A stretch of DNA of 64,000 bases, from the NCBI GenBank assembly GCA_036172245.1, contig JAYWIR010000030.1, positions 310,001 through 374,000 on the forward strand, written 5' to 3'. Shown here piece after piece: positions 3,143-61,500 of this stretch. Numbering within the stretch: position 1 is the stretch's first letter; every line of letters begins with the position of its first letter. The notes beneath the pieces are model-generated. The model searched no databases, had not been told where the DNA came from, and worked only from the letters and a program-made list of their open reading frames with translations. The stretch is from Raillietiella orientalis. Taxonomy: Eukaryota. The translations under genes and the position numbers were made by a program.

Positions 3143-3865
3143 TTAGAATTTCTTGCGATTGGATGAGGTAATGTCTGTGACGGTCCATCTGTCTGTAGGC
3201 GCCTTTTGATAGTCGGGGTCCCAGTCGGAGAAGACGATGATGTGAGGTGCAGGAAAGTATCTGATGGATCCGTGATTCTTGGGATCAAATACGATGCCAT
3301 TTTTTAAACTTTCGATAAATCCGTACTGTACAAGTTCGCGGTTGTCGCGTGTGAGATCTTATAAGGATGATGCACTCACCGTTGTAGAGGTGAGTGGCCT
3401 TCATGCAACTTTGTAGGTAAATGGCTCCTCGTTCGAGGGATTAAAACCTGGCAAAGGTCGTCTTGCTTCAATTGCCTCGTTCATCCTTTATCCGATGAAT
3501 GTTTCGGTCACGTGAAGGTTTCTTGAGGGTGTCGAGGATGGTGAGCTGCCACATTCCCTGAGTCGTAGTCCGAGCATTCGGTTAAGATGATCTGTGTCTC
3601 GGTGTAAACGGAGACATTCTTGGATGAATGTGATACTTTTGCTGCAGAACTTTGCATGGTGGCTGAAGATGTATGGCGCATCCTTGACTGATTGTACGGG
3701 TTGGAGAATCTGGAACGCAAGGGAACATAGTGCGTGATAAAGTGAAAAAGTGGGAGCCCAGCGTGCGAGGATGTCCGTTTTCGTCACCAACTTTTGACCG
3801 AGTCGAGCCCTTCTAGAGTACTTGGTGGTGGCGAAGCACCGGTTGATGTAGGCAGCACACAGCAT
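3143..3865 (-). pseudogene. rep: Endogenous CRESS DNA virus Rep, decayed copy (EVE-A)
   Basis: Manual translation across frameshifts gives MLCAAYINRCFATTKYS (motif I region) ... ILQPVQSVKDAPYIFSHHAKFCSKSITFIQECLRL ... ILDTLKKPSRDRNIHRIKDERGN*SKTTFARF*SLERGAIYLQSC..HLYNGECIIL/DLTRDNRELVQYGFIESLKNGIVFDPKNHGSIRYFPAPHIIVFSDWDPDYQKAPTDRWTV. This is colinear with the Rep at 11.4-12.35 kb. Most of the endonuclease domain (motifs II and III) is deleted. Confidence 0.93.
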
Positions 3866-10030: not shown

Positions 10031-11395
10031 GTGGTCACTCCGGGACGTTTATTCCACAAAAAAAGAAACAAACCACAAACTTGGAGGGATATGTATCCCC
10101 TCAAGACACAAGAAATAGTCATGCAAAAAGTTAAACCGGGAAAACCATCGGCACGCAGGCCGGCTTCAAAAAAAGAAGAGAACAAAGGGAAAGGACACAA
10201 AATAGACAAAAAAAAACAAAGGAGGGTGGGGTCTTTGGTACTGAACGTTCCTCTTCTTCTAGAAGCGCCGCTTGACGATGGCGACTTTTCTGGGCAGATG
10301 AGACCCCCTTGCAGCTGCCTTCATAAGGTTGGCAGCTATCCTGGTGGCATCCTTTCGCTGCCAATTCCCTTCGAGCTTACGGCAGGCCATCACGATGGCG
10401 CGGATGCAACAGATTGTTGCGATCACAGCGCCCTTCTTCAGTCCGCCTTCGCTGAAGAAGCATTGCAGCAGGTCGATGGCAGTGTCCTGGAGACGATGAA
10501 GTGCCGAAGAAAGACTCCACCATAACACCTGGAGGTCAGTGCATTCCACAAGAAGGTGCGGAAGCGATTCCTTCGCCCCGCACCTGAGACAGTTCGGGGA
10601 GGCGACTCCCCTGGAAACCAGGTGTCTGAGCTGATTGCACTGGAAGCACCAGTGCAGGACTAGCAGAACATCCTGTTTCCAACGAAGCGGAAACACTGAG
10701 GTGTCCATGCAGAGAGAAGGGACCACGAGTTCTTCGGGGGATACACTAAGAAGTTCACTCCACCGAAGGAGTCCCTTTGCCCGGTGATGAGGAGTGGCAG
10801 CATCCACCAGCTCGCTCGTTTTGCAGCCACTCAGGAATTTTTCGACTCCTGCAATCCTTCAGGAGAACCTCCATCCTGCCGGTTGGCTACTGTTGTTGCT
10901 TTCCCTGAATGAAGACAGCTCTGCGGCCAGAGGTGAGACGGCTACCCGGGACCAAAGCGACTAGTCCTGCAGGATAACTCCTAGCAGTTTGCGTAGGAGA
11001 CCCTGTTGAGGTCGCAGTTGCTCTGGACGCACATCCAGAGCTTCCTGCCGGCAAGTATTCCAGTTATTGGGTCGGCAGGAAATCCAAGGATGGGCTAACA
11101 ACAACGAGGACAGATGCCTCAGAGGGTAGCCAAATCTAGTTCTTCGGCGTAGGTTGCGCGGCAGCAACGAAAGAAGACCTGCACTGCCGACACATCTCTG
11201 GAGGATGTGGCGAGCCGGAGCACACCAGTGAGAAGACCACAATTTCCCACTTAGGAAGAGAAGCTGGAACTGCACCGAGCAGCTCGCCCCATCTTTTTAA
11301 TTCTCTCGGCTGGACACTAGGGGTCGTAGCATCTGTCAGCTCTCCCATGGTCCAGCCGCTCATCATCTTCTCTCTGCCTGCGATACGGCATCCAA
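10031..11395 (-). mobile_element. L1/Tx1-like LINE C-terminal fragments plus 3' UTR
   Basis: DAATP..KGLLRWSELL..PEEL..LHWCFQCN..PNCLRCGAKESLPHLLVEC. A second fragment (GWTMGELTDATTP) abuts and truncates the viral Rep at about 11395. Confidence 0.88.
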
Positions 11396-11399
11396 TCTG

Positions 11400-12349
11400 T
11401 GAGACGATTAGCATCAGAACTGGATATATTTTTGACTGTCCATCTGTCGCTGGACATCTTGTCGTAGTTGGGCTCCCAGTTTGCAAAAACGATGATGTGT
11501 GGAGGCTGGAAGTATTTAATGCTACCTTGGTACTTCGAGTCGAAGATGATGCCGTTCTTGAGGGACTCGATAAACCCGTATTGGACTGATTCTTGGTTGT
11601 CGCGGGTGAAGTCGACCACGATGATTCTTTCACCGTTATAAATATGTGCTACGTCTGCATTTTTACATGAGTGCATGTAAATGGCATATTTTTTCAGATA
11701 AAGGAATTTGGCCATAGTTGTTTTTCCGGCTCCTCCTACTGGATCGTAGTACCAGTATATTTTACGGCTTTCAGGGTTGTGTCTGAAGATCTTTAAAATA
11801 TCCATCTGCCAACTTTTGAGTTGCATTTTTGCGAGTGGGTTAGGATGGGCTTGGCTTCGTGTTAATCTGAAGCATTCTTTAACAAAGTTAATATTTTTAC
11901 TATAAAATTTCGTGTGATTCTTAAGTATGAATTGTTCATCGGCGCCATCTTGAATGAGTGCAGCGGAGTATCTAGTGGAGAAATAGTGTTTGATCTTGTT
12001 GTCATTGGTTTTCGGTACTTACTAATTGTTCGTAGGTTTGAGGCTCGTTATGTCCGTAGGTCCAAGCGTTCTTATCCTGCTTGGTGCAGTACCTCACGTT
12101 GCTTCGTGGTGAGCCTCTCGCCTTTTCCAAGTGGCACTTCTGGAAGGGCTTGCGTCGTAGTCCGGGCATGGTGCGTGGTTCGCGTAGTTGGATGTATCCT
12201 TGGAGATGTGGCGTTCCTGTTTCGGCTGTTTCTTTTCCAATACAGGCGGAGCAGCAGTTTTGACGGCACCAGTTTTTAATTTCTTGGAAGTCTTCATCGC
12301 TGTAATTACAAAAGGTTATACACCAGTTGAAGAATAAGGAGTACGGCAT
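11400..12349 (-). pseudogene. rep: Endogenous CRESS DNA virus Rep (HUH endonuclease plus SF3 helicase), nearly intact (EVE-B)
   Basis: RCR motif I (WCITFCNY), II (TPHLQG), III (YCTK); Walker A (GGAGKT), Walker B (IVVDFTR), motif C (IIVFAN), Arg finger (DRW). Putative intron at 11972-12022, one 4-nt insertion at 11956-11959, and the extreme C-terminus replaced by LINE sequence. Confidence 0.97.
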
Positions 12350-12375
12350 GTTGGCACTTGGTAATTCTGTATATG

Positions 12376-12414
12376 GTGAGACTTGGCTTTCGGCTCTTGA
12401 CGGTGGTTTATATA
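12376..12414 (-). promoter_or_regulatory. Rep core promoter of EVE-B (TATATAAA plus AGTCTCAC)
   Basis: TATATAAA at 12414-12407, AGTCTCAC at 12383-12376, ATG at 12349. Confidence 0.65.
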
Positions 12415-12430
12415 CTGCCCAACTGTGCAG

Positions 12431-12449
12431 TGGTAAGTCGTATTACCCA
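12431..12449 (+). other. Candidate rolling-circle origin nonanucleotide TCGTATTAC
   Basis: 12438-12446 is one mismatch from TAGTATTAC and lies just upstream of the Rep promoter. Only a short TGG/CCA stem remains. Confidence 0.5.
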
Positions 12450-12699
12450 GATACTCGCTGATATCCGAAATCCGTGGGAAAGTGTAAGTAGGTATTATAC
12501 TTTTAGATGTTGATTTTGATATCTGCGCACGTGAATAGCTTTTTTTTTGTAACGCAGATGGCCGGTCGGCCATCAACTCAAGGTCTGGTGAAATCCGACC
12601 ACGTGAAAGGCTCGTGAAGTCGGACGCGCGAGTGCGCGCCAGCGAGAGTGAAAAAGGGTGGGGGGTTTGGTAAATCGTCAGTACGCTGTCGAGCGGGGA

Positions 12700-13315
12700 A
12701 GAGTAAATCCTGCGTGTGCCAGGTGTGGGGAGCGGGAGTCCCTCCCCCACTCCTAGTTGACTGCCCTGCCCTCCGGATTCTTTAAGATCGTCTTGGAACG
12801 GCCCTTGGGATACCGGCTAGTGGCAACCCCAGAGACGTTTACAGTCTTTTCTTCGTGCGGGACGCCCTGAGTCCAGCCACAGCCTTGGCAGCACTTTGCT
12901 GCCTCCGGGGCATCGTGGCGGCATGAAGTGATGCCCAGGACGAAGATGTTGATTCCAACGAGATGGAAGTCATCCCGTATGCAGTTCGCTTCATGCAGAG
13001 AGCTACCGGATGGCGCCAGCCGGGAAGAATGAAGGAGGACCTCGAGGGCATCCTGCAAAGGATGGGCCCTCCCCGTAGTGGAATGTGATCCCTTCCCGGC
13101 CTTCCAAACTCTTTTTTGTTTTCTTTTTCTCAATTTTATTTTTACTTTTGTTTTCTCCCCCATCCCCTTCCACTGCCGAGGAGAGTCACACCGGGCTGCG
13201 TCCCGGTGTCCCGGCAGGTCCGGTGTTGCGTGGCCGTTAGTGAAGCCTTGTACCATGTTTTTTTGTATTGACCAATGCGAAGTTTTAAATAAACGTCCCG
13301 GAGTATCCGGGTGTC
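12700..13315 (+). mobile_element. L1/Tx1-like LINE 3' end
   Basis: NPACARCGERESLPH, C-terminal helix region, structured 3' UTR, AATAAACGTCCCGGAGTATCCGGG terminus. Confidence 0.9.
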
Positions 13316-15570
13316 ATCTCCCGCGATGATGCAGGAGAACACCCACTTTGCCGGGAGGCAACTGCCATTGCTTTCCCACAGGGAAGAGAGCGCCGCGGCC
13401 AAAGGTGCGGCGGGATCGCGAGTCCGCGTTCCTTCACGATTCTTCTCAGGGACATTCTCTTCCCGAACCTCCGGACCGGCACGAGATCTTGCGTCTGGTG
13501 CTCGTCAGCCGTGCCCAGGTATTCACGGATGTCTCCCTCCACGAACGACATCTGAAAAGGCGGCAGGGAAAACCCAAGAAGACTCCTCTTGCATTACCTC
13601 CGGTTGCGAAAAAGCAGAGATGCGAGTCCCTCGCACCCTGACGCTCGCCTTACGGTGCGGTGAGCGGAGAGGCGACAGTGCAGGTTCCAGGCCCTCTCCA
13701 TCGGGGCGAGTCTTCGGAAGTGGAGCTGCAGTTTGATCCTCCGCAACGTCAGGAAGTCGAGTCAGGCGTCCATGAGTGGCGCAGCAATGTCCTTGAGGCG
13801 AACTGCAATGTCCCTCGTAGCCACATGGTGTCCCAAAGGGCCTTTCTTAACCGAAAGAATTAGGATTGCCGAACACCCTCACCCTTATTGCTACAAGCTG
13901 GGACAAACTGCTCCTCCTTGAGAGGTACGACAGTTGCCAACCAGCTGGGTGGGCTTCGTAGCAGCAGGACAGGGTGGGGAGTCCGCGGAAGTCAGGCTGG
14001 TTGGCTGACTCCAAGACACCCATTGTCCGTGCCAAACGATCAATTCGTTGGGCAGAGCACCTTGACATTCTGCCGTGGGCGATTGCCATCTCTCCACTCC
14101 ACCTGGACACTAAAGATTTCCGTGCAAGGGGCAGCGGCATCGTTGCACTGGGGTGAGGAGCGTCTCCCTGAACTGCCCCATCCACGGGGCGATGGGAATG
14201 CCCATGCAACACCCACTGCTGGAATGCGGCGATCTCCGGAGCGCGCATCAACGCTTCCAGGCGGTTCCACTTTGACCCATAAACACACGAAAAAGTGCTG
14301 TCTGCTGCAGTGCTGTCCTGCGTGGGACAGCCTTCTGCCTGCTTCCCTGATCTCTCAACCTTGCATTGGGTCAGGAATATCGTGGCGACTCGGAACACCA
14401 AGGGGGGGCGCCAACAGGAAAGAGCGATCGCAGGATTCGATTCCTATGAAGGATGTAGAAGAGTCCGGAATTCACCACCTCTATCGCAAGCAGGCCACTG
14501 AGGGCTCAACGGATGTGACCGGTAACCTCTATCCCTTCACTTAGTTACTGTCTCCTCCCCTACACCCTCCCTACCCTTATGAGGCCGGTTGTGTGGCGTG
14601 GGCTGCTGAAGACTTGGATTGCTTAAGGATCACAACGGACAGTGCTTCAAATATACGGGCGTCCCGTCGGGATGTTCCTCCCATGCGGTTGTCTCGGAAG
14701 GGCAGAGTCAGCACTCGGGCCTCCTTGGGTACCAGGTTCCTCTTACCGGAACGCGTCGAGGTGCGGAACATGTCAAGGACTTCCCTCTTTCCTTCATGCT
14801 GTTTGTCTGTGACCCCCAGAAATATCAAGAAGCGACCCAGGAGGCATCTTTGGGGCACGGGGGAATCGCATGTCTGCATGCAAGATTTGTGGGCTCCGCG
14901 TCGGATGGTGCCTTTCGACGCTGGAGCGGATGGAGCATCAGTTCTAATCCCGTGGACCGGTCCTGGAGGCCAGGTTCACTGGACTGGACGCACTGGTGCA
15001 CTCCTGCACGACTCATGGTCAAGAGAGTATCCAGTGCTGAGGGTTCACTTCCTCGTCCGCGGCAGCCGGATCTTGCCCCGACTCGGCTGTGGGCTCCGGC
15101 AGAAGGCTGCCTTGGTGTAGGAACACTCCTGGATCTCCTGCTTGTCCTCAAATCTCAGGGTATGGTAACAAGAAACATTTCAAACGTGGGCGAAGATGAA
15201 CGGCACGAGTCTGGAGCTCCCGCAGCGCCTGAGATACTGCGATCGCAGTCTTTGGTCGCTAGAGGGAATCGTTATCGAAAGCCTCTGGGAGAACACGCGG
15301 AACTGTCCTCTCAGTGGAAGGGGAAGGAAGATCGCCTTTGGATTCTCATGAAGGAAAAAGACATAGGGTTCTTGGGTGGTGCATCAACTTCCCGACGCTT
15401 CCACACCCGCTGCCCACCCCGAAGGACTTCTCTGCTGGACAGATATCGGAATTCCCCTGCAAAACCTCGAGATACCTAGGGTGTCCTGGGAGATCCCTTC
15501 CCCTGAGGTGGCAGGACATGTCGTTGCGGTCAGAGTAAGTAGGAGCTCCAAGAGGCATGTCAGTGAGGAT
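13316..15570. mobile_element. Mosaic of LINE ORF2 fragments in both orientations
   Basis: Minus-strand post-RT segments (about 13316-13870 and 14600-15570, including a YL.V-like thumb region) and a plus-strand C-terminus (about 13870-14580, LHWG..CN). Confidence 0.75.
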
Positions 15571-18999: not shown

Positions 19000-21460
19000 T
19001 CAACAAAAAAGCCAATGTGTACAAACTGTCACCCTTGTTGCGTAACCATTGTGAACAAGCCACCGTACGTCACAGATTCCGTGACCACTTTTTTCAAGAG
19101 GGCAAAAAGGTGTAGGGGGGAGCCATTTTTTTGTTAGGGAAGCAACAAACACAACCCCACGCGCTCTGACAGGAGGAACGGGACAACCTGAGAGGCTTAC
19201 CTTGGCAACCCTTCCGGGTAAAAATTACACCGGCCACTACTACTGGCTCGACAAGACCAAGCTCAAAAGAGCTCAGGACTTATTTCAGCGAAGAATGCTC
19301 AACATGCCGTCTTCCCTAAGTCCTGAAGAAGAAAATGATTGGGAAGAGGCAGGTAGCGGTTAGCGCAACCTCAAGAGTCCACGTTTCCTCCGCGGCGACA
19401 AAGCACTTCAGCTCCAGCACGGACAACTCTTTCTCGCGGTCACAAGCAAATGATTCTTTCCCCCAACATAAACAAATCGCCGGTAACGCAAGTCACATCA
19501 ACCGAGAGAGGAGAAGATACGCGTCCGCCTCAGCGGGGACCCAAGCGCCTTCGTGGTGTCTCCAACGTCACCGTACCCTCGCAACCGAACGAGCGCCCCA
19601 GCATTTCGTGCGCAGACAGACAGGCACCAATAGCGCGTCGAGTTCTCGACCCGTTCAAGGCTAACATCCTAAACTGGAGCTGCAGCTCCATCTTCTTTGG
19701 AGAGAGGATACGGGTGGCGAGGTGTTTCGAGGCGACCTTGCAGTGTGCCCCGCAGTGCTTGCTCGGGAGGTCCTTGTGGAAAGACCCCCACTGTCTTGCG
19801 CTCCGCCTCGTGCGGAAGGAAGAAGCCCTCGAAGGAAGGAAGAGGAAGGCAACGAAGACCTGCCAAGAGGAACTCGCAATCTTGCAACGGAGGCAGCGCC
19901 ATCTCCGCCTCCGGGGTGCCTTTGGCAGCAAACGGAGACCTCCGGATCGCTAACTTTGGACTCTGAGGAGTCGGATTCCGTTGCTTCCAGAGGCCGTGCT
20001 CCATCCATCGGGAAAAAGCGCGAAGCCGCGGAGACAATCGAGCAAGAAGAGGACATAAGTGGCATCGCACTACACCTACAAGGAGGGTTGTAGCAGAGAG
20101 CGCCATCTGAGAGGCATAGGCAGGAGTCCACGGACGATCATCTGCCTGCACTTGCTGTGTTTCGACCGCCATTGACTGACAAGGGTCCTTCCTCGTCATG
20201 TTCCCATCCATAACCCGCAGCCGCGTCTCCTGTTGTCGCTTCTGCGCCTCCTGTTGGAACGCCAACGGGCTGCACGACGACAAGAGGCGCGTGGTGGTGG
20301 AAACCTTGCGCTCTTTCCACCTCGCTCTGCTTCAGGAGCGCACCAGAACTCCCAGCAGGAAGTCTTGATGATTCAAGAGAGGTGAAGGAATGGGGGGTAA
20401 GAGGAGCTGCAATGGCGGAAAGGGACGGCACACTTGCGCGGATTGACCTCCTTTGTAAAGCAGTCCTTGAAGTGTGCCGTGCACAGGGCGCGTTTCGACG
20501 AGAAGATCCAGTGGGGCAGCTTCTTCTGAAGTGGTCCAACTCGATCCGAATCGTCGTCGCAAACATCTCCGCGCCTGACTGCAGGCTACTCCACAGCTCC
20601 AGGATGCAGTTTTTCCGCGACCTCGGTAGCCGGTGGCTAAATTCCGCGAGCACCAGCGTGGCTCACTTGGTAGCGGACGACTTCAACGTCCCGCCAGCAG
20701 CGAAGGACTGCTCTCGCTGCTGCCGGGCACCTATTACAGGATGCGAGGATTTGCTTTTCCCTCAGGCAGCTCGCCTCTCTAGTGGAAGCTCACCCGTTGA
20801 TCTCCTGCCGCCCGACGAACTTCAATACTTGATGGCAGAAGGCTGTTGAGTCCTGGGCTGCGTTCCAGGAAATGCGCGCTGAAGATCTTTACTCCCTGTG
20901 GAATCTGTCGCCACGGCCGCTGAAAGTGATGATGCAGGACGCGGGAAATTTTTCGACTCTGGCTGCCACACCTCTCACCGCAGCTTTGTCTGCCCTCAGG
21001 GCAAGAGATGACGGCAGCCTACCGGCGAGGTGGGAGTTTTCCTGCAGCATCACGGGAAAAAACAGACTCCTCGGCTGCTGGAAGACGGGCGAGCTGACGG
21101 ATGCTGCCACTGCGCGTGCATTGGCAAAGGGACTCCTTCGGTGGAGAGAATTTTTGAGTCTTGTCCCCGAAGAACTTGTGGTCCCTCCCCATTGTTATGG
21201 CACTTCAGTGTTCCCCATCTCCTGCATACAGGCCGCACTGCTCTTCCTCCACTGGAGATTCCAGTGCAATGAGCGGCTGCACCGAGTTTACACGGGGACT
21301 GCATCCCCGAACTGTGCGAGGTGCAGGTCGACGGAGTCGATCCCGCCGCGCCTGCTTTTGGACTGCGGCGCCTTCCAAGAACTATGGCGGAGGCTGGCGT
21401 AAGCTCTCCCGCTCCAGCACACCATTCGCGACCCAGTGAGACGGTTCTTCGTTCGGAGAG
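19000..21460 (+). mobile_element. LINE remnants: ORF1 end, APE endonuclease domain, then a C-terminal fragment
   Basis: KPMCTNCH (knuckle), NILNWSCSSI, IVVANISAP..RMQFF..LVADDFNV (endonuclease motifs); 20870-21400 reads WKTGELTDAAT..LHWRFQCN..PNCARC. Confidence 0.75.
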
Positions 21461-21465
21461 GTTTT

Positions 21466-23660
21466 TCATCCGGGTGAGCCGGGGCTTTTATTATTAAAAT
21501 TTTTTACAATAAAAAAATTCTATAATAAAGTCTTCTTTTTGTTGTCACTGTGTTGTTTGTTTTTCAGCCGGAACACATGTTCCGACTGTCCTGGGGGCAC
21601 TTGTCCTTACCGACCCTCAGGCAGGTAAGGTCCTCTACACGGGCGCAGGGGCGGGAAAAACAAAAAATAAACAAAAAAAACAAAAACGCCTGGGGGGGAC
21701 AATGTTTTTGGGAGGGGAGGAGAGGGAGGGGATTACGGTACGCCGTGGGGAGGTCTCTGCATCCGGTTTCGGATGCGAACAAGTGCCGGCAAATGTTTTC
21801 GGAGTCGGCGCCAACGGGAAGCCTTCTTCAAGGAGATGGCAGCCCAGTGGATGGCATTCCGACTGCTGTGACCTCTCCTTGATGCGGTCCACTTATCCAG
21901 GATTCCGTGTATGCAACAGAGCACTGCTACACACCCGGAGGCTAGCATGGCGTCCCTCATCAGGAGGCGTCGAAAAATGTTCTTGGGATCGCCCACCGGA
22001 ATGTTTAGGATCGAGGAGAGTCGATCCCACATGAGGGGTAGGGCAATGCATATTACATATTAAGTGGGGGAAGGTCTCCCTTTCCCTGCACTCCGCGCAA
22101 TTGGCATCCACACTCCCCGATGTCCAGTGAGACAGGAGTGCTCTGCTTAAAAGTCCCCAATGGAGCAGAAGCAACGCCGTCTCCTGCCACTGCAGGGGGA
22201 GGGTGCCGTTGTCCCAAGACGCTGGGGGCCACTTCACCTCCTCCAGAGGCATGTCGAGCAGCTCTCCCCAGCACACAAATCCATAAGGCGGGACACTCGG
22301 GGTCGCAGCGTCCGTGCTCCCAATGCCTGTAACAGTTTTTTCCTGCCTCCGATGAGGCAGAACACTTCCCATAATACCTATTCCTGGCTGTCCCTAGCGT
22401 GCCGTAGGGAGGGCAGCACGGAATCAAGGGGGGTAAACGAAGTCCACAAAAGTTTTCGTGGGTTCGAAACGATCTCCTGTAGGGGCTGTCCAGCGTGCCT
22501 GTCTCTACGGAGGCAGGAGTAGTCCGAGTCGCTGGAGGCGTTGATCTTAGCCCACGCGGAAACTGACTCCTGTAGCCGGGTAGTCCAGTTCGCGGGGACG
22601 CAGGAGATCCACGTATTCGCACTCACCAGGGCAACCGCATCAAGCAGCTGAAAACCACAATGGTTCAGACTGCGGGCGTCGGCCTCAAGGATCGATGTGA
22701 ATCCATTTCAGCTGGTCTCTCCGCTGGCGAGCAGGAGTGAAGGAACGAACCATGGCGTCGTCCATAATATCGCCGCAAGGGCAAGATTGCGGATTCATAG
22801 CTGCCGCTCCATGCGCTCCAGCGTCAAGAGGCCTAGTTCCCCGTCCCTGTGTGGGGCGCACAAGTCTTTGAGTCGGACGCGGGACATCCGTGTACCCCAC
22901 AGGGCTTTTCTCAGGAGGTCCTTTGTCCTAGTCTCTATTTGAGTTGGAACAGGGCAAACAAAAAGTAGGATGCGAAAGCGTTCCACACCGCGGTCCGTTC
23001 CGGCAAGTAAACCTTGCCGTCACGGAACGGACCGATCTCCAGCTCCACCTTTTGGAGACGATCGGACCAGGCTTCTGCAGCGCAGAAGTCTCCAACGGAA
23101 CGCCAAGGTACTTTAATTACCCGCGCGTGGGGATCCCCGAGCGGATCCAGTCCGGCCGTCCAGCCCACGTTGTGTCAACTTGGAGGATTGATGACTTTGC
23201 CCCGTTAACCTCCAGTTCCGTCCCTTGGCTGAGCAGTTCGAAGAACTCCTCGAGTGCAGAAGCCGAAGTGGGTCCGGGGAGCAGCAGCAGAAGATATAGG
23301 CATAGGCGTCTGCATAGGCCGACACGGCATGCATGCCGGGACATGAGCTCGGCAGGGTTGCCAGAGTCTCTCTGTATGCTCTCAGCACCAATTCAAAATA
23401 GATGCTAAAGAGCAGGGGGTTGAGGCTGTCACCCTGCCTTATGCCGCGTCGAACCGGCACGCCGTACACGTGCCGGCCGCTGAAAAAAATGTTTATATAC
23501 GCGAAGCGCCAGCAGGAGCGCAGATAACCCAGGAACACGGTCCGAAAATCCATGCTTTCCAGGGGCTCCAGAAGGAGTGCCTTGTTGACGAAATCGAAAG
23601 CTTTACGCAAATCGACTGCGACTTGCTCCAGACGCGTGCGATCCTTCTCGGTCAATCTCC
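21466..23660 (-). mobile_element. L1/Tx1-like LINE ORF2 (RT to 3' end), decayed
   Basis: AVDLRKAFDFV, RRGIRQGDSLNPLLF, AYADAY, CAPHRDGELGL, ANCAECRERETFPH; terminal hairpin at about 21468-21492. Confidence 0.92.
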
Positions 23661-26848: not shown

Positions 26849-27499
26849 GTCCGTCGTTGGGATCAACCGATACGCAAATGCGCGCGAAGGCCCGCAACTT
26901 GCATTCCTCGAGTACTGCAAATTCGGGGAGCCATCGGACGCCTTAGCAAGGATTTAAGAGCTAGAAACAGATAAGGCGCTTAGAAAATCTGGATCTTCAT
27001 CGAATGAACAAATGATGAATTTGGGACATGTAGCACTTATTGAGTGAAGCTTGGCCGGAATCCTCAGTACTGGATTGCAAGTCTAAATGAATGTGTTTGA
27101 TTTCGCATGAACCTTTCACCACATCTTTCATTTTGATGGTGGATTTTTCACATCTTTCGTCAGGGAAAAATTTGTTCAGGGAACCACCGTTGTCTGATTC
27201 TTTTCTCTACTTTTGGCGAGTTCTTCCCACTCCTAGAACAGCTAAAAACATTGGTATTTCAGTGGACCAGTTAGGGTATTTTCTTTCCACCGCTTTTCCA
27301 GGCAGGGCTTCTGCACACCCCGCACACGAAATTTTCCATTCTTATTTCCAGCATATTTGTACAGATCCGCGCTGCTCCTTGCTCTCTATGATACCCTCGA
27401 CTGGGGACATGGCAACGTTCCTCTTCGTTCTTTTTGTGCTGGTCGTTGCGCGGATGAAACGAGAAAGCGCACAACTGCACAAGGTGCCGGGAAGAGGAG

Positions 27500-28620
27500 A
27501 CTGTGGACCGCAGTGCCCCCTGGCAGTAGTCGGCAATGCCTCTCGGATGCCCTGCTTCACCAAGAGGATAACCAGCTTTAACGTGTGGCGGCAGGAGACG
27601 CTATCGCCCTGGGCAAGCATGAGGAAGGGTCTCTTGTGGAACTCCTTTGCGTGCACCTCTCACCATACTGTCCGGTGGAGGATGTGCTTCAGGACCAGCA
27701 CAAGTAAACTCGCCCGGCCTTTGTCCCTTGCCGCAGTGCCGTCTGCCCTTAGGGAAAGCGATAACAGTTGTCTATCGGCGGGGTGGAACAGCTCCTGCAC
27801 GCTTGCTGGAGAAACAAGATCGTTGATCGTCTGGAGGACGAGCGAGCTGGCAGACGCTGCCACTCCTCGTAATTGTGCGAAGGGACTCCTTCGGTGGAGC
27901 GGACTCCTGAGTGTGCCCCCCGAAGAACTTGTGATCCCCTCCTCGTGCGTGGACACGTCTGTGTTCCCCCTTCGATGGAAGCAGGACGTGCTTCTGCTGC
28001 TGCATTGGGGTCTCTATTGCAATCAGTTTGCGAACCTAGTTTCCGGGGGAGTTGCGTCCGCGAACTGTGAAAGGTGCGAAGCAGTGGAATCGCTCTCGCA
28101 TCGGCTCTTCGACTGCGGTGACCTTCAAAAACTGTGGCGGAGGCTACCTGCAGCACTCCTGCACCAGGGGGACACCGCCATCGACGTGATGCGGCGGTTC
28201 TTCACGCGTGGCGGCCTCTCCCTAGGTGCGGTTATCGCAACGATCTGTTGCATCCGTGCCATCGTCATGACCAGGCACTTGTTTGAGTTGCGGGCAGCCC
28301 CAACAGAGGTCACCAGGACTGCAGCCTCTAATATATGCATGGCTTCCAGGTGGCCTCACATCAGTGAGAAAGTCAGAAAGGAGATCTCTGGTATGCAGCA
28401 CCATCCATTGGAAGAAATTCAAAAGAAGGAATGGCCGAAACCACAGACCCCTGTTCCCTATCCTCCCATTTCTTTTTGCATTTATTTTTTTGTCCTTTTC
28501 CTCCCGTTCCGAACCTTCAGTATGCGTGTCGGAGGCCTTCCCTTTGAACTTCTCGTCCCTTTGCCTGGGAACTTTGTTCCCAGATGCTTTGTTCAAAGGT
28601 CCCGGCACACCAGGTAAGAA
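27500..28620 (+). mobile_element. LINE ORF2 C-terminal region, open frame, plus 3' UTR
   Basis: WRTSELADAATP..GLLRWSGLL..PPEEL..LHWGLYCN..ANCERCEAVESLSHRLFDC within the 508-aa ORF. Confidence 0.9.
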
Positions 28621-54264: not shown

Positions 54265-55410
54265 GAGCAGCTCTGGAACGACTGCTTCTCGCTGAAATGA
54301 CCTGGCTATTCCCTGGTTTTTTTTAACTCAACATGTCCTGCTATTTTTGAATTGCAACTTAAAAATGAGCCGTTTAGGGGAGAAAAGGCACTTTTAAAGC
54401 CAGGAGCTCTTTAGAACAAGTCAGCATCAATTTCAACAAAACTCAGGGAAGACACAAAAATCAAGGGAAAGAAATGAAAACTGGAGGAACAATTGAGAAA
54501 AGGCACCAACCGTCCGTCTCCCGACTCAGGGAAAAATCGGTTCCTGGTTTCAAACCTTCCGATTATCGTGTATTACATGCACATGATCGAGCATTGATCC
54601 GCCATGATTAGGGAGAATCTTGTCATTCTGTATTCACATGCTGTCTTTCGAAACCCTTCTAACCCATCTAGTCTTTGTGAAAAAGAATACTTCACGAAAT
54701 TTTTCGTAAGCATCCAAGTTTTTTTGTAAATGGAAAAATCCATTTCTGCTCAGTCAACCCAGAGTTCATAAACGCATTGCATAAGGCTGCTAGGAATCTG
54801 CTAATAACGGTATCTTGTAATCACAAAATAGTGGTTTGAATAATCATTCAATACTTTCTTTAATCGAATAGTAAGTTCTTTCGTCCAATGCAACGTTTCA
54901 AAAATGGCTTCATTGAGCCATAAGACTTCAGAACATGTGAGCATACAAATCCGTGGTAAATGCTTCAAAAACAGTTGCATCATTACCATTAAATTGATCA
55001 TCTCAGAAAATGCAAATGTCCAAACAAAAGATGAACCTGGGTAGTGAATCTCATACACTTACGAAATGAATACACGTGCTATATGACATTTGAAAACACT
55101 ACTCCCCACGTTCTGAAATGCAACCGATAAGGCAAAAACAAATTTATGATGAATACAAATGGAGTGCAAATCCACTTGTAATGCATATGAAATGTATGCA
55201 TGAAAAATTGAAAATTTCGTTATCAATAGTACTGTAACAAAACTTTCATTCAGAATGACTATAATACGAAATACCAAAGTAAGAGAAAAAAGAGAAACAA
55301 AAACGAAAAAAACACGTCCCCCTCAAAGGGAACACTTTGGAGCATCGCCTTTTCAGGGAAGTCTTTCGAGTTTGCCAAATGCTGCCGCCGCGGCGAAGCA
55401 GAAACTCGAT

Positions 55411-58400
55411 TTTCACCCGGGTTTCGCCGGAGCGTTTATTATAAAAACAAACTTTAACAAAGACGTGCAGTGGCTGGACCATTGCGCCAGCCACGCACGA
55501 AGAAACACAGAGCCCGCCGGGTCACCGGTTCGCAGAACGGTACGGTCCACCACGGCAGCAGGGAGAAGGGGGAAAACAAAAAACTAAACAAAAAGAAAAG
55601 AAAAAATGGGAGGGTACGGGAAGGGATCACAGTTGCTTCTGGGGCCGTTGCATCCTTCGCAGGATGCTGGCAAGCTCTTTCTGCATTCCTGGATCCAGGT
55701 GGGGCCATCGCGACGCCCTCCTCAAGAATTCGGCGGCGTGCTGGATGGCACCCTTATCGCTAGGTCCTCCCGTAGCCTTACTCCAAGCGGCGACGATCCC
55801 GCGGAGGCAGCAGAAGGCTGCTATCGAGGCCGCTGGCCGAAGGGCGTCAGCAACGAAGAGAGCTTTTAAAGCGTCCCTGGGGTTGCCGCAGGGGATTCCG
55901 ATGGCCGCGGTAAAGCGGAACCAAAGGGGCCGAAGGGCAACACAATCCACAAGGAGGTGGGGGAGGGACTCCCGTTCCCCATACCTAACACAATTGGGAT
56001 CGACCGCTTCCCAGGTCCAGTGGTGTCGGCGGGCGTTGCAGGAAAGTCCCCAGTGCTGCAACAGTAGAGCCGATTCCTGCCATTTTAAGGGAGCGTGGAA
56101 GTGTTCATGAGCACCGGTGGCCACTTCAGAAGTTCAATGGGAGCATCGAGCAGCGCGCCCCAGCGCAGAAGTCCATTGGGAGGCGTACTCGGGGTCGCAG
56201 CGTCTGTTAACTGGCCCGTCTTCCACTCTCCTTTCTTCTTCTCCTTTCCGGAGATGGTTACTTTAACCTCCCACTTCGCCGCAACATCGCTGTCCTGATC
56301 TTCCATTAGAGAGGGCAGCTCAGCAGCGAGGGGGGTTCTTCCTGACCACGCTCGCTTCTTCGGATCCTCCAAGATCTCTCGGAGCGTGCAACTTCTGTAA
56401 CACCCAAACAGGAAGCGTCGTTCCTGTTGGGCGCGTTGCATGCCGCACTATGCCTATTTGCGAACGGTTTCCTGCAACCAGGCACTACCGTTCGCGGGGC
56501 GACAGGTGATCCATCCGTGGTTTTTTCGAACCAAGGCAGCCACCCTCTGCAGCTGAAGCCCACATCGGTTGATGCGGGAGCGATGGAGTGAAAGAAAGGA
56601 CGTGAGTCCCGTCTTCCCGGTGGCTTTCTTGACGAGGAGACGTGCAGGGACGCACCAGCAGGTGCACCACAACTCTGGCACAACGGCCAACATCCGGAAC
56701 TGGAGCTGAAGCTCCAGCCGCTCCAACGTGAGTAGGCCGAGACCGCCGTCCCGACGCGGAGCGCACAAGTCCTTCAGGCGGACTTGGGCCCTCCCGTTGC
56801 CCCAAAGGGCGATACGGAGGAGGTCCTTCGTCCACTTTTTAATCCTCTCTGTGGAGGGAGGGGAGGGGGGGGAAACAAAAAGCAGGGAACGGAGGAGAGG
56901 AGTCGCGAACGTGTTCCAAACCGCGGCTCGTTCCTGCAGGAAAAACCTGCCGTCTTGGAACGGGCCGATCGACGTCTCTACTTTTTGGAGGCAGCCGGAC
57001 CACGCTTCCGCAGGGGAATAGTCCCCCAACGGCACACCAAGGTACTTGAAGTACCCCACCGTGGGGATCTCCAAACGGACCCGGTCCTGCTGCCCTCCCC
57101 ACGCCCCACCAACTGGCATCACGGATGACCTCGCCCTGTTCACCGTCAGTCCGGTTCCCCGATTCAGCAGGTCGAAGAAACCCTCGACCGCTGAAGCCGG
57201 GGTGGACATAGGGAGCAGCAGCAGAAGGTCGTCCGCGTATGCTGAAGCCGCAGGCGTACCAGCGCAGTCGTGCGGCAGGTGCGACACAGTTTCCCTGTAC
57301 GCCCTCAGTACAAACTCGAAGTATGTACTGAAGAGCAAGGGACTCAGGCTGTCTCCCTGCCGTATCCCACGCCGCACCGGCATGCCGTGCACGGTCTGTC
57401 CGCTGAAAGAAACGTTGATGAGCGCGTCGCGCCAGCTGGAGCGCAGATAGGCCAATAATGAGGCCGGGAAGCCCAAGCGTTCCAGAAGCTCTAACAGGAG
57501 ATTCTGGTCGACGCAGTCGAATGCTTTCCGCAAGTCGACTGCGACCGCAAGGGCTCCCTCCCCCACCCGATCATCCGACCCATGGCTGACGGACTCACCG
57601 GAATTCCGGCTGAGCATCAAGCCCCTTTCTTGTTGGAGCTCTAGTCAGGTGAAAGCGTGGAACAGGTTCGCCTCCATGCTTCGCCCGGGAACAGCATATG
57701 TCTATTCCGGGCTGATGAAGGCGTTGGCAACCCGTCCCAGCCGCTCTGTCCACAGCTTGGCTAGCAACTTGGCGTCCGCATTCACTATTGTGATGGGACG
57801 CCAGTTGTTCATGCTCCTCAGATCTCCTCCCTTTGAGAGGAGCCGCACCTTTGCCGAGCGAAACGAGGCGGGAACGTCACTTGTTTCACGGATCAGCAAG
57901 GTGAGTTGATGTACCAGGGGAGTAAGCTTAGCCGCGAAAGTTTGATAAAACTCCGCGGGCAGGCCGTCCTCCCCTGGAGCCTTGCGCCTCTTGAGCTTTC
58001 CCATGGCCGAGATGATCTCGCCCATCGTGAAAGACTCGTCGAGGGACTTTCTCTCCTCCTCCCCGATCGCTGGAGCGCCTTCCGGGAGCAAGAGTCGTGA
58101 GACATCCCGCTCGGGAGGCGTTCTTGCGTACAGGGAGGAATAAAAACGCCGCAGCAAGCTGCGGATCTGAGCTGGTGCCGAGTGCTCCTGGCCCTGATCG
58201 TCCAGCAAGCTGGCGGATCCGGACTGCCAGGCTTGCCTCTTGGCTCCCGCTTTGTATTCCTCCAGCCTGCGGATGTCGGGGGTCCTGGCGTAACGTCGGG
58301 CCTGTAGATGCGACCTTTCTTTACGGACCCCGTCCCCAAATCCCGCAGGTAGGCGGTGCAGGGGGAACTGGTCGCAGAACTCCTGGACCGACCGCTTGAA

Positions 58401-58590
58401 GCGGTTCCTGTCCTGAAGTGTCCGCAGCCTGAAGCTACGTATGAACGCACGGAGATGTTCCGCCGCGTCCGGAAGCTTCAGCCAGTCTCCTGGCAAACGC
58501 CACGCTGACGAGGGGAAGGGCCTGTCGCGCGGATGAATCTGGAGCACGATAGGGCGATGGTCGGACAGCTCGGAAGGTACGAAGCAGAAA
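55411..58590 (-). mobile_element. Best-preserved L1/Tx1-like LINE copy (5'-truncated ORF2 with several frameshifts/stops)
   Basis: SDHRPI (end of endonuclease), KAPGEDGLPAEFY, WRPITIVNADAKLLAK, VDLRKAFDCV, GIRQGDSLSPLLF, YADD, KYLGVPL, GGLGL, zf-RVT, full 3' UTR. Confidence 0.96.
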
Positions 58591-61500
58591 CTCGAAAACT
58601 CTCTCTGCAAACCTCTTATGGTGCATCAAGAAGATATAGCTGCAAACCACATCCAAATGAGATCAAAAATGGGCGGAAGATCACCATCAAAAGAATCGCA
58701 AATCCTTTCCAAATCCAGAGCAGCTTCGCAGTTTATGAGTGATTTTCCGATTTCGGTACTTCCATAAATGGAATGCACTTTTATTTCGATTCAGCTGCCA
58801 AATCTGCCATTCGACCCACCGATAATCACGCATTTATTTGTCACAGAGTTGCGGTACATCCTTCATCTTCACCTCCCTATCTAACCTGCCACTATGAAAC
58901 CGCGGATTAATTTCGTCAAATGAAGCTGCATTACTTAAACACACATAGCTCTTGGTTACCAGTCGCTTACCCGAACATTTTTAAAAGTATTCCATATTTT
59001 CCACCAACCACTTGCTCTGCTGAAGCAATGCTTACCCACTGCAAGACCAGATATGTGTCCGCTGGCGTCGTTTCTCGCATGCTGTTTGTGCTTTCAAGAC
59101 TCCCATGGAACCGTGCGTGAATTCACCTTCGTTTCCTCCTCTCTTACCGCGCACCATCATTTGCTTGTAATCTGTCATCGCTCAACTAATACTTATTATT
59201 CATTCATCTGCACTGCACAGCATCATTTGCACTTGAACAAATGCTATTAGAAACCCATGGGTGGAAAAAAGGGATTTTCTTATGGCGCACCCTTCCATCT
59301 CCCTGCCTCATTCCAGCGACAACTCCGTTACCAAGCAACAACACAACGCCACCACACTTCGGTTGTGGGTGGAAGCACCTGCACAGCCACTGAGGTATTG
59401 ATGCTTGCCAAAGTCTGCATTTGGAATTCACGTATTTTCCCTCCAATTTGCCCGGTGCTTTTTCCTCTCCTCCCCGTGCTTGTTGGAAGGTGTTCCTTGA
59501 ACGTACGCTCCTTCTAAAATCCTCGAAAGCAGTACAAGTAGGCGATAGGTGTCAATTTTTTTGCAATATAGAAAATATTGCAATAAATAAATAACTTTTG
59601 CGGTTTCAGTAAGTATCGGGTTCGAATTTAAAGTGTCAATATTCATATGCATTCGTCGACTGCATCAGAAAAGGTTATCTGGACTTAGTATTACTATCAT
59701 ATGCAGACTGTAGTTTTCCCATTGTACTTGACTTACTATCCCAAACAGAACATAAGAATACAATAGGACGAACACATGCATGTTCATACACAGCACTTGT
59801 CAACTGTAGAGGCTACTAGTGGAGATTCTTCACATCAGGACTTCTTTCTTCAGGACATCTTCATTCTTCACATCACAGTAAATTAACAAGTAGTTTACTT
59901 CAAGATGCACGCTGCGACGGGTGTTGCATATCTCAGGTATCAAATAATGTACCCAATGATGGTAATCCTATTGATGGGTTTTACGAAAATATTAGAGTAT
60001 TTGTGTGTGTTTTTTTTTTTAAACACTAAAGCCAATCGCTTATTTAAGAAGTATATTTTCAAGTGAAGTTCTTACTTGAAATTTCGAGATAAAAGAATAT
60101 TGATAAATCAGTACACTGCACAACACGTAGAAACTAGTAGTAGCACATAGAGAAGGATAGAGTAAGGACATTCGTGTCATTCCACCGACATAGAAATAAG
60201 CCTGGTATAACATTAATTACAATGCAAATCACAGGGTAGAGTCATAACTGCAACAGAAAGACTACAAAAAAGTAGAGAAAATCGGAAAGTACATAAATTT
60301 GATTAAATTTTATTATGATGAATCAAGGAAACTCAGTAAGTTGTCAAAACTGATGTGATGACTTCTATACAGACATGGCAAGAATTTGAACTTTTAATGA
60401 TTTTAACAAATGTTATTATAATCCCATGGGTGGAAAAAAAAGGGAACTGCCTTCTGTGTTCGACTTTCTAAAACTCGATATTTTAGTAAGCCAGCAGTAA
60501 AAGGTCTTGATACTTTATTGTAATCAGAAAAGAAAAAAATGGAGATCAGTTGCTTGTAAATGTGGATAAGACTGATTTCTTCCTGAACCCACTAAATGAA
60601 AAGTAAAAGTCCGGAGAAAAACGGAACTGCTTAACTTTGAGTGTTATCAATTGGTTAACAAGTTTTCTCACCTGCTAGTTTTCACACCTGTCACTACTGC
60701 TAGTGAAAAAGATCCGGAGTCAGCAATGCAAGGTTTATTTAATAGGAAAGTCTTCGAACAAGATAAAGTTACACAAAGGGAGAAAGTGACAAAAAAAGGT
60801 TTAACCGTGCTTTCATTTTTATAAAGTAGAATAGTGAAATATTGTTAAGCCATCACAAGGAAACGCATCGGTGGAAACTCCAAAAGATTCGTTACAGAGA
60901 GAAACAAAGATGCCTTGAAATCTTTTATGAGTCAGGAATATTTGAGTATCCATGATTTTGCATCCAGCCGTCGGTAATCACAAGTGTGCGTCTTCCACGA
61001 AGAGCAGAACTGAGGCGCAATCTCTAAAAATGCAACAGGTATGCCGCATTCTATTGCTTTGCAAGAGTGGAAGTAATTATGATGCCGTGAGACGCAAAGA
61101 TTTGACAACTGGCGACACCGTTGCAGAGAACATTGTCCCTCGATCTCACGACACGGCCGTGGGCAAGCAAGGATCTCGTGAAATACCGTGCGCGTCCACT
61201 AATCAGTCATCCTATTCCGAGATGGAGACGGAGACTTCTTCGGCTGCTGGTGAAACTTTCATAGACTTGCGAGGGTGCGAGGGCATCAGCCGAAGACCCC
61301 CAAATGGGAAAAAGCACAGCAAAGATATTAAGTGAGGTATCAAAAAAAATCAGTTCATCAAAGAATTTTGATGCAGGGCTTTAGAAAGCCAGAGCTTTGA
61401 GCTAGTTTCATTTTGTCATTGTATTTTTTCTAAGCGGACGACAGAACATTTAATACACAAGAAGACATTCCCTTAAATCATGAGTTGTTGTTGTATGATT

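Follow-up and report, generated by a model that had tools for sequence, protein, structure and literature searches.

CRESS-DNA-like endogenous viral elements (CEVs), found in invertebrate, protist, plant and vertebrate genomes, are chromosomal fragments of Cressdnaviricota genomes that carry only or mostly Rep in a disrupted frame, with several related but distinct copies per host. According to the account in PMC6186406, invertebrate CEVs are scattered over the Rep tree, with at most 19 CEVs in one host. Among the CRESS-DNA genomes of 2-3 kb known from metagenomes (IMG/VR loci L001-L080), which encode a two-domain Rep along with further ORFs, 67 of 80 display an origin hairpin with a looped nonamer, mostly TAGTATTAC. 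As reported by Kazlauskas et al. (2018, PMC5923481), 71% of unclassified CRESS-DNA Reps appear chimeric. In the Rep described here, the nuclease and helicase halves point to different known groups.

We analyzed a window of 64,000 nt from Raillietiella orientalis (GCA_036172245.1, contig JAYWIR010000030.1, positions 310,001 to 374,000, forward strand), in which two Rep copies, at 3143-3697 and 11404-12349, share a strand and are separated by 8 kb. The latter is a real endogenous viral element; such elements are widely reported, and it suggests no new mechanism. In our assessment, the segment 11400-12550 is probably a truncated germline insertion from a member of the Cressdnaviricota, the copy is inert and little decayed, and the two copies go back to two separate integrations.

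Like the reported CEVs, the locus is a Rep fragment with a disrupted frame, accompanied by a related, distinct copy. Unlike them, its protein identity is no higher than 49% among the matches listed from two libraries (~15 billion sequences represented), and its sister copy, diverged under selection, is just 8 kb away. It shares the two-domain Rep architecture of the IMG/VR genomes, whereas the hairpin and a capsid gene were not found in the window copy. The coordinates of all features are collected in Table 1.

Table 1. Positions of viral, LINE and other features in the window, with the basis for each assignment
Feature	Position	Strand	Basis
Second, more decayed Rep copy (EVE-A), helicase half alone recognisable	3143..3697	-	tblastn
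Pair of LINE fragments immediately downstream of Rep	10172..11399	-	tblastn and tblastx against the window's other LINE copies
Read-through tail, 28 codons and stop, LINE-derived, not viral	11317..11403	-	tblastx to LINE copy from 11399
Rep linker and SF3 helicase domain	11404..12003	-	Pfam, library matches, AlphaFold model
D-R-W	11440-11448	-	
Motif C, VFAN	11479-11490	-	
Walker B, IIVVDF	11608-11625	-	
Walker A, GGAGKT	11719-11736	-	
Sole frame break of Rep	12002..12023	-	ORF list and sequence
Rep N-terminal part, HUH nuclease domain and start codon	12020..12349	-	Pfam, solved structures, alignment with 20 relatives
Motif III, YCTK	12080-12091	-	
Motif II, PHLQG	12197-12211	-	
Motif I, CITFCN	12305-12322	-	variant of usual FTLNN
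Start codon ATG	12347-12349	-	
AT-rich segment upstream of Rep, probable viral intergenic remnant	12350..12550		composition step at ~12550
GC-rich stretch (GC 0.61) between viral segment and next LINE	12551..12682		no other copy in window
3' part of LINE, opposite orientation, other side of insert	12683..13230	+	blastn, tblastx

A Rep with nuclease and helicase domains

The original prediction placed an endogenous CRESS Rep with intact catalytic motifs at this locus. ORFs, Pfam and tblastn confirmed a Rep-like coding region there, on the minus strand, and identified 11404-12349 as the Rep of a CRESS-DNA virus with an HUH nuclease and an SF3 helicase. The N-terminal piece (12005-12343, minus strand) matched the Pfam family Viral_Rep (PF02407, E 2.8e-13), and the nuclease piece matched solved Rep nuclease domains of PCV2 and others (E 1.2e-12 to 8e-8). 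The C-terminal piece (11320-12018, minus strand) matched PF00910 with an E-value of 2.6e-4, slightly above the cut-off, and 7744 library proteins matched the helicase piece at E <= 0.001. The AlphaFold model of the helicase piece reached a pLDDT of 80 and a pTM of 0.73, and its best fold matches were the SF3 helicases E1, Rep40 and NS1. When the helicase piece was searched against solved structures, the only matches were tetanus toxin Hc chains, which are chance hits (E 0.12-0.14).

HUH motifs I, II (HxQ) and III (YxxK) are all present. Motif I differs from the common FTLNN at no more than three positions, and the alignment shows that relatives vary here too. All 18 of 18 invariant columns, including G95, G98, K99, N180 and R192, are retained in the alignment with 21 relatives. 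Together with the Pfam matches and the motif coordinates, this alignment supports an endogenous Rep with its catalytic motifs in place. The R of D-R-W is presumably the arginine finger.

Comparison with known Rep groups

The nuclease half resembles that of Circoviridae. The Rep of PCV2 (PDB 7lar, 2hw0) has the PF02407 nuclease in common with the Rep here (E 6.7e-9 to 8.2e-8), as well as the PHLQG and YCxK motifs. The helicase half differs: in Table 2 of PMC8950603 and Table 3 of PMC8307498, circovirus helicases are listed with Walker B DDF and motif C (I/V)TSN, whereas we observed IIVVDF and VFAN, and the Circoviridae helicase motifs are absent from this Rep. A search of solved structures with the helicase piece returned no solved Rep at E <= 1, though full-length PCV2 Rep (7lar) was in the library and was picked up with the nuclease piece.

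The helicase had been predicted to be closer to nanovirus, alphasatellite and smacovirus-related Reps than to circovirus Reps, and its unlikeness to the latter held. Nanovirus Reps probably share the style of an xxGGxGKT Walker A and a single-Asp Walker B. The proposed likeness to the three groups came down to one alphasatellite row in Table 3 of PMC13709847 (PLGGEGKT, LVIDI), which has this Walker A and a single-Asp Walker B as here; the motif C given in the same row, TSTK, differs from VFAN.

The Reps of the IMG/VR genomes have GGxGKT, a single-Asp Walker B and VFAN in common with this Rep, at 28-45% identity over the helicase piece. All relatives found belong to Cressdnaviricota and lie on contigs of 1-6 kb, and the only named ones among the matches listed are "Cressdnaviricota sp.". 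Searches by peptide pattern found no close relatives of the single protein in viral contigs, and none of the protein or of the two-copy alignment in metagenome contigs. A further peptide-pattern search of viral contigs gave one locus, at 42% identity.

A sister copy that diverged under selection

The copy at 3143-3697 contains two in-frame stops and at least two frameshifts, and ends in its own stop at 3143-3145. No nuclease (HUH) domain was found in it by tblastn or Pfam at E <= 10, and a possible similarity upstream of 3697 was unconfirmed by BLASTP. The two copies are sisters, with an SH-like support of 99 in a tree of 275 rows and an SH-aLRT of 99 in a tree of 60 rows, both values coming from quick methods and from trees built without named reference Reps, nanovirus and alphasatellite Reps included. 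In the 60-row tree the stem branch leading to the pair is long (0.74).

Identity between the copies is 51% at the protein level and 58% at the DNA level. Across 178 codons, 67, 48 and 108 differences fall on codon positions 1, 2 and 3, respectively (chi-square p 3.7e-10). The pN/pS between them is 0.39 (bootstrap 0.31-0.50), with a pN of 0.31 and a pS of 0.80, the latter saturated, and the copies disagree at 14 of 23 fourfold sites. The excess at third positions and the pN/pS therefore indicate that the copies diverged under selection, and the preset neutrality test argues against a neutral duplication after integration. In a self-comparison of the window, we detected no flanking DNA common to both copies. 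Most simply, they would represent two viruses that integrated separately, which is what the divergence from EVE-A had been taken to suggest and what the non-neutral differences favor. With four disruptions in 178 codons against one in 310 (binomial, p ~0.06), the copy at 3143-3697 may be the older of the two.

Alternatively, a single ancient integration may have yielded a host-kept gene that was duplicated locally, with both copies under purifying selection and the one at 11404-12349 lost later. The copies are each other's closest relatives on a long stem and are near neighbors on one strand, their selection-like divergence fits a host as well as viruses, the frame is open over 310 codons, and PMC6186406 mentions Entamoeba as a host whose Rep copies are transcribed. 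Two independent integrations on the same strand 8 kb apart would, moreover, hardly be expected by chance unless the region acts as a trap for insertions. However, the flanks showed nothing in common, the copy at 3143-3697 has no detectable nuclease domain, and the copy at 11404-12349 retains upstream sequence that looks viral, along with a GC content that is low, as in viruses. We therefore regard this history as unlikely and favor separate integrations.

A nearly open reading frame with one break and a LINE-derived end

No in-frame stop occurs in the 310 viral codons of the Rep at 11404-12349, which under a neutral divergence of 0.058 has a probability of 0.05. The copy, which had been called young, is so in a relative sense only, with a neutral divergence of at most ~0.058 per site if it has been unselected. 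So many open codons beside decayed LINEs could also mean selection on a host copy, not youth.

The frame is broken once. The upstream frame stops at 12002-12004 and the downstream frame, offset by +1, opens at 12018, giving an overlap of 12002-12018. A 4-nt insertion had been proposed; the single break is compatible with 4 nt, but other indels fit equally. Read from the sequence, the break lies within a short repeat-like stretch and has GTAAGT at it.

As predicted, the Rep tail is replaced by LINE sequence: Rep-like residues end at ~11404 and LINE homology starts from 11399 in tblastx. Lacking its own stop codon, the Rep frame continues through 28 codons until it meets a stop at 11317-11319, and residues 212-233 of the AlphaFold model, which lie in this tail, have a pLDDT below 50. 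Because the other copy ends seven codons past the aligned point, the missing Rep end amounts to a few codons only.

Given the frame break, the lack of its own stop and the LINE fragments on both sides, the chromosomal copy is most likely an inert pseudogene, which would have decayed little since selection ended. It seems quite improbable that it is instead a working, possibly co-opted gene in which the break either stems from misassembly or is somehow bypassed. The frame would be preserved by a 28-nt GT...AG interval spanning the break, and the lack of in-frame stops, the retention of all motifs, the repeat-like setting of the break and its GTAAGT are consistent with such a gene, but the Rep, its original stop gone, continues into LINE sequence, and at 28 nt the intron would be shorter than most eukaryotes allow.

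Boundaries of the viral segment and its LINE surroundings

The GC content is 0.429 in the insert and 0.553 and 0.571 in the flanks, with steps at ~11400 and ~12550. The right limit of 12700 in the original prediction was ~150 bp too generous. The viral intergenic region upstream of Rep had also been described as retained, and this stood in part. The sequence is AT-rich up to ~12550 and contains, on the plus strand at 12438-12446, TCGTATTAC, which has one mismatch to TAGTATTAC and precedes the ATG by 88 nt; in 35 of 59 loci of relatives, the nonamer precedes the Rep ATG by 15-345 nt. By chance, ~0.012 such one-mismatch nonamers are expected per 200 bp, and 3.75 across the whole window. A canonical origin hairpin is lacking: none with the nonamer in its loop was found in 12340-12700, and folding of 12351-12560 and of 12405-12475 gave z-scores of about -1 each. 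The viral segment extends ~100 nt beyond the putative nonamer, which places the junction away from the nick site. In the GC-rich stretch that follows, we noticed a palindrome (inverted repeat) at 12557-12574. No Rfam family was found in the window.

We searched the window for a capsid gene by tblastn with 269 ORFs taken from 80 contigs of related viruses and found no capsid-like match. Among 289 hits, just two, both weak (E 0.002-0.003), fell outside both Rep regions. A very distant capsid could escape this search, as capsids diverge fast.

In the assembly, the viral segment is joined to LINE-bearing sequence on both sides, where LINE sequence abuts 11399 and resumes at 12683. The downstream pieces are 11271-11399 and 10172-11275, the latter comprising the end of the RT domain and the C-terminal domain. 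On the other side, 12715-13227 matches the LINE copy at 55504-55992 by blastn, and tblastx similarity begins at 12683. The minus-strand pieces 13307-13405 and 11271-11399 map to neighboring LINE coordinates by tblastx. One LINE family has many copies across the window; the piece 10172-10930 has two stops in 253 codons, and its identity to other LINE copies is 65-72%. The best relative of the LINE is a metagenome protein (69% identity), followed by plant L1-like proteins (24-40%). The taxa recorded for LINE relatives in an atlas were few and ambiguous, namely Chordata or Bacillariophyta. The original prediction had suggested an invertebrate host; no host gene was found among the 238 window ORFs of at least 95 aa, whose only domains are those of LINEs (RVT_1 in three ORFs, Exo_endo_phos in one).

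These surroundings bear on two further explanations. An antisense-to-rep read-through viral transcript may have been captured when the LINE machinery switched templates while inserting the plus-strand fragment (12683-13290). The viral segment adjoins this 5'-truncated LINE in the orientation expected of template switching, and older minus-strand LINE sequence with neighboring coordinates lies on both sides. However, neither a target-site duplication, the overlapping LINE parts of the two sides being ~60% alike, nor a flanking direct repeat was found, the LINE fragment lacks a poly-A tail, and the 130 bp between virus and LINE would be unexplained, which leaves this route very improbable. An assembly artefact, in which a viral contaminant or chimeric read was joined to host repeats, is equally hard to credit, since the almost intact viral segment and its sharp composition steps at both ends would suit it but the partial genome with no capsid gene, no origin hairpin and a frame break does not, and the decayed sister copy in the same window shows that the lineage entered this genome.

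Proposed origin of the insertion

For the germline insertion that we favor, we propose that ~1.15 kb was inserted from a small circular Rep-encoding ssDNA virus of an unclassified Cressdnaviricota lineage. The insert would carry ~200 bp upstream of rep and almost the entire rep, while the capsid gene, the rep end and a working origin hairpin would be absent. In the virus, the HUH domain, through the motif III tyrosine, is expected to nick the origin and the SF3 helicase to unwind DNA, supporting rolling-circle replication. Integration may have proceeded by illegitimate recombination of the double-stranded replicative form rather than through Rep nicking at the nonamer. The source virus was probably related to, but different from, that of the possibly older copy 8 kb away.

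Implications for CRESS-DNA viruses and their host

By analogy with the arthropod clusters that contain viral fragments and give rise to small RNAs, the LINE-rich region might be a trap that repeatedly captured viruses of one Rep lineage, with the near-intact copy perhaps expressed. We consider this a speculative and rather unlikely extension of the separate integrations. If true, the copies would record, and perhaps defend against, a virus lineage that persistently infects the host.

Endogenous Reps are among the few direct host links for CRESS-DNA viruses known only from metagenomes, and the copy at 11404-12349 could assign a host to an otherwise unplaced Rep lineage. The pair of copies also offers a rare internal test, which favors repeated integration over duplication.

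Structure of the main Rep copy

The better preserved of the two Rep copies (the main copy, copy B) lies at 11404-12349, and its Rep protein is jointly encoded by two minus-strand open frames, as found from the ORF list and the sequence. Pfam matches to both domains, the checked motif coordinates (see table) and 18 invariant columns across 22 aligned sequences (the main copy and 21 database relatives) bear out the original prediction of a Rep with catalytic motifs at this place. Motif I is unlike the usual FTLNN, and the aligned relatives are variable there as well. We modeled the helicase piece (pLDDT 80, pTM 0.73, final 22 residues unstructured), and the closest solved folds were the SF3 helicases papillomavirus E1, AAV2 Rep40 and B19 NS1, with TM of 0.37-0.42.

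Features of the two Rep copies and the LINE surroundings
Feature	Position	Strand	Evidence
Rep start codon	12347-12349	-	
Motif I, CITFCN	12305-12322	-	
Motif II, PHLQG	12197-12211	-	
Motif III, YCTK	12080-12091	-	
Nuclease piece	12005-12343	-	Pfam Viral_Rep PF02407, E 2.8e-13
Helicase piece	11320-12018	-	PF00910, E 2.6e-4, 21.8 bits vs cut-off 21.5
Walker A, GGAGKT	11719-11736	-	
Walker B, IIVVDF	11608-11625	-	
Motif C, VFAN	11479-11490	-	
D-R-W, residues DRW	11440-11448	-	
Copy A, helicase half of related Rep	3143-3697	-	
LINE fragment left of insert	11271-11399	-	tblastx vs longer LINE copy, 55000-59300 of window
Second LINE fragment, further left	11275 down to 10178 (tblastx), 10172 (tblastn)	-	
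LINE 3' fragment right of insert	~12683 to ~13230	+	
LINE family, example places	10172-10930, 20794-21474, 27091-28614, 55579-58625		

None of the 310 viral codons is an in-frame stop. The single frame break lies between the stop of the upstream frame (12002-12004) and the downstream frame (from 12018), with an offset of +1; the 4-nt insertion proposed earlier is compatible with this offset, but other indels are equally so. The copy lacks its own stop: Rep-like residues finish at ~11404, LINE homology begins from 11399, and 28 codons are read through to a stop at 11317-11319, in line with the tail having been replaced by a LINE.

Relatives and family placement

Of 159 candidates from a word-indexed search, 9 proteins passed E <= 0.001; the closest share 46% identity and come from 2-5-kb contigs. 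An exhaustive search of 1.84 billion representatives found 7744 proteins at E <= 0.001, including 84 at E <= 1e-30; identity was 32-49% among the best 150. The top match, P0010 (354 aa), consists of two Rep helicase domains in tandem. Its 3.9-kb contig carries a bacterial (Methylococcales) MAG label, and it probably represents a CRESS element, either mis-binned or joined into a concatemer during assembly. The named virus matches of the profile search were 'Cressdnaviricota sp.' only, and the feature search led to Cressdnaviricota clusters, the highest score being 0.98. In IMG/VR, 322 of 427 candidate stretches encode relatives, and 80 were retained at 28-45% identity. Another relative, P0220 (291 aa, 41% identity), sits on a 333-kb contig and could be a further endogenous copy, from a different large genome.

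Compared with solved Rep nuclease domains, the nuclease piece matched 7kii (1.2e-12), PCV2 (6.7e-9 to 8.2e-8) and a nanovirus domain (4e-5), while the helicase piece matched no solved Rep at E <= 1 in a library that includes full-length PCV2 Rep. Unlike IIVVDF and VFAN here, circoviruses have VIDDF or IVDDF as Walker B and ITSN as motif C (Table 2 of PMC8950603; Table 3 of PMC8307498), and DDF-type Walker B occurs in Cirlivirales, Recrevirales and Rivendellvirales (Table 3 of PMC13709847). The helicase is thus unlike circovirus Reps, as predicted. For the suggested nanovirus, alphasatellite or smacovirus likeness, GGAGKT and IIVVDF do resemble the sole alphasatellite of the latter table (PLGGEGKT, LVIDI), but one row in this style is a resemblance, not a placement. 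PMC5923481 reports apparent chimerism between the two domains in 71% of unclassified CRESS Reps; a circovirus-like nuclease fused to a helicase of another kind would match this pattern.

Upstream region

The AT-rich composition extends through 200 bp above the ATG, and a nonamer, TCGTATTAC (12438-12446, +), lies 88 nt from it, with one mismatch to TAGTATTAC. The whole window holds 6 matches at <=1 mismatch against 3.75 expected, which scales arithmetically to ~0.012 per 200 bp. An exact TAGTATTAC at 59686-59694, with no Rep near, is compatible with chance by these counts. Of 80 related viral contigs, 67 carry the nonamer (mostly TAGTATTAC, on either strand) in the loop of a hairpin, and it is 15-345 nt upstream of the ATG in 35 of 59 with a full Rep ORF. 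No such hairpin was found upstream of the main copy, where folding is unremarkable (z ~ -1). The segment, claimed earlier to be a retained intergenic region, is therefore plausible as a remnant of one by its composition and nonamer, but lacks the origin hairpin, and a functional origin is absent. Using 269 ORFs of the 80 related contigs, tblastn gave 289 matches, just 2 of them, both weak, outside the Rep regions, and no capsid remnant in the window.

The second copy and divergence of the pair

Copy A is spread over three frames, with 2 in-frame stops (one within Walker A), at least 2 frameshifts, a 2-codon gap and its own terminal stop; no nuclease domain was detectable upstream by tblastn or Pfam. 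About 200-350 bp below its stop codon, 2800-2950 is very AT-rich and of low complexity (GC 0.21-0.30, long T/A runs).

The copies were sisters in a helicase-domain tree of 275 rows (SH-like support 99) and in a quick tree of 60 rows (SH-aLRT 99; stem 0.74; copy A on a terminal branch of 0.67, copy B on one of 0.21). They share no flanking DNA within the window, and align as DNA only at 11433-11640 vs 3178-3386 (68.9% identity). Over 178 aligned codons, identity is 51% in protein and 58% in DNA, with pS 0.80 (saturated), pN 0.31 and pN/pS 0.39 (bootstrap 0.31-0.50). Differences at codon positions 1, 2 and 3 number 67, 48 and 108 (chi-square 43.4, p 3.7e-10); 14 of 23 fourfold sites differ, and there are 104 transitions and 119 transversions. 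Neutral decay cannot explain this divergence, because copy B has at most ~0.058 neutral changes per site and the 2 stops of copy A suggest roughly 0.07, against an observed DNA difference of 0.42. Neutral-only divergence, which the original prediction had named as its own refutation test, was thus not seen, as pN/pS and the codon-position differences indicate.

Surroundings and origin of the copies

GC is 0.429 at 11400-12550, against 0.553 in the left and 0.571 in the right flank, with composition steps at ~11400 and ~12550. At the latter boundary, on the GC-rich side, lies a perfect 8+8 palindrome (12557-12574; GATGGCCG / CGGCCATC, 2 nt spacing), preceded by a run of nine T (12541-12549). 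The GC-rich 12551-12682 has no second copy elsewhere in the window. The LINE family is dispersed over the window in both orientations, and 8500-58700 is mostly its graveyard, with ~15 places that match its C-terminal domain on one strand or the other. The nearest protein to this family in the databases comes from a metagenome (69% identity), followed by plant L1-like proteins (24-40%); these relatives say little about the host. Among 238 window ORFs of at least 95 aa, RVT_1 was found in 3 and Exo_endo_phos in 1, and no non-LINE kind of gene besides Rep.

Given the non-neutral divergence of sister copies, they are most simply explained by two integrations, each by a different virus within a single lineage of relatives, as originally proposed. 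It is odd that the copies are only 8 kb apart on one strand; alternatives are a trap-like region behind two events at this distance, a single complex event that gave both copies, or a duplicated host gene long under selection. LINE-mediated capture was also considered from the arrangement of LINE pieces around the insert, but neither a target-site duplication nor a poly-A tail was found.

CRESS-like endogenous elements have already been reported in many eukaryotes (PMC6186406; see also PMC6069186 and PMC7493932), and those of invertebrates are, in PMC6186406, scattered over the Rep tree with several per host. The main copy therefore adds to a known class of element.
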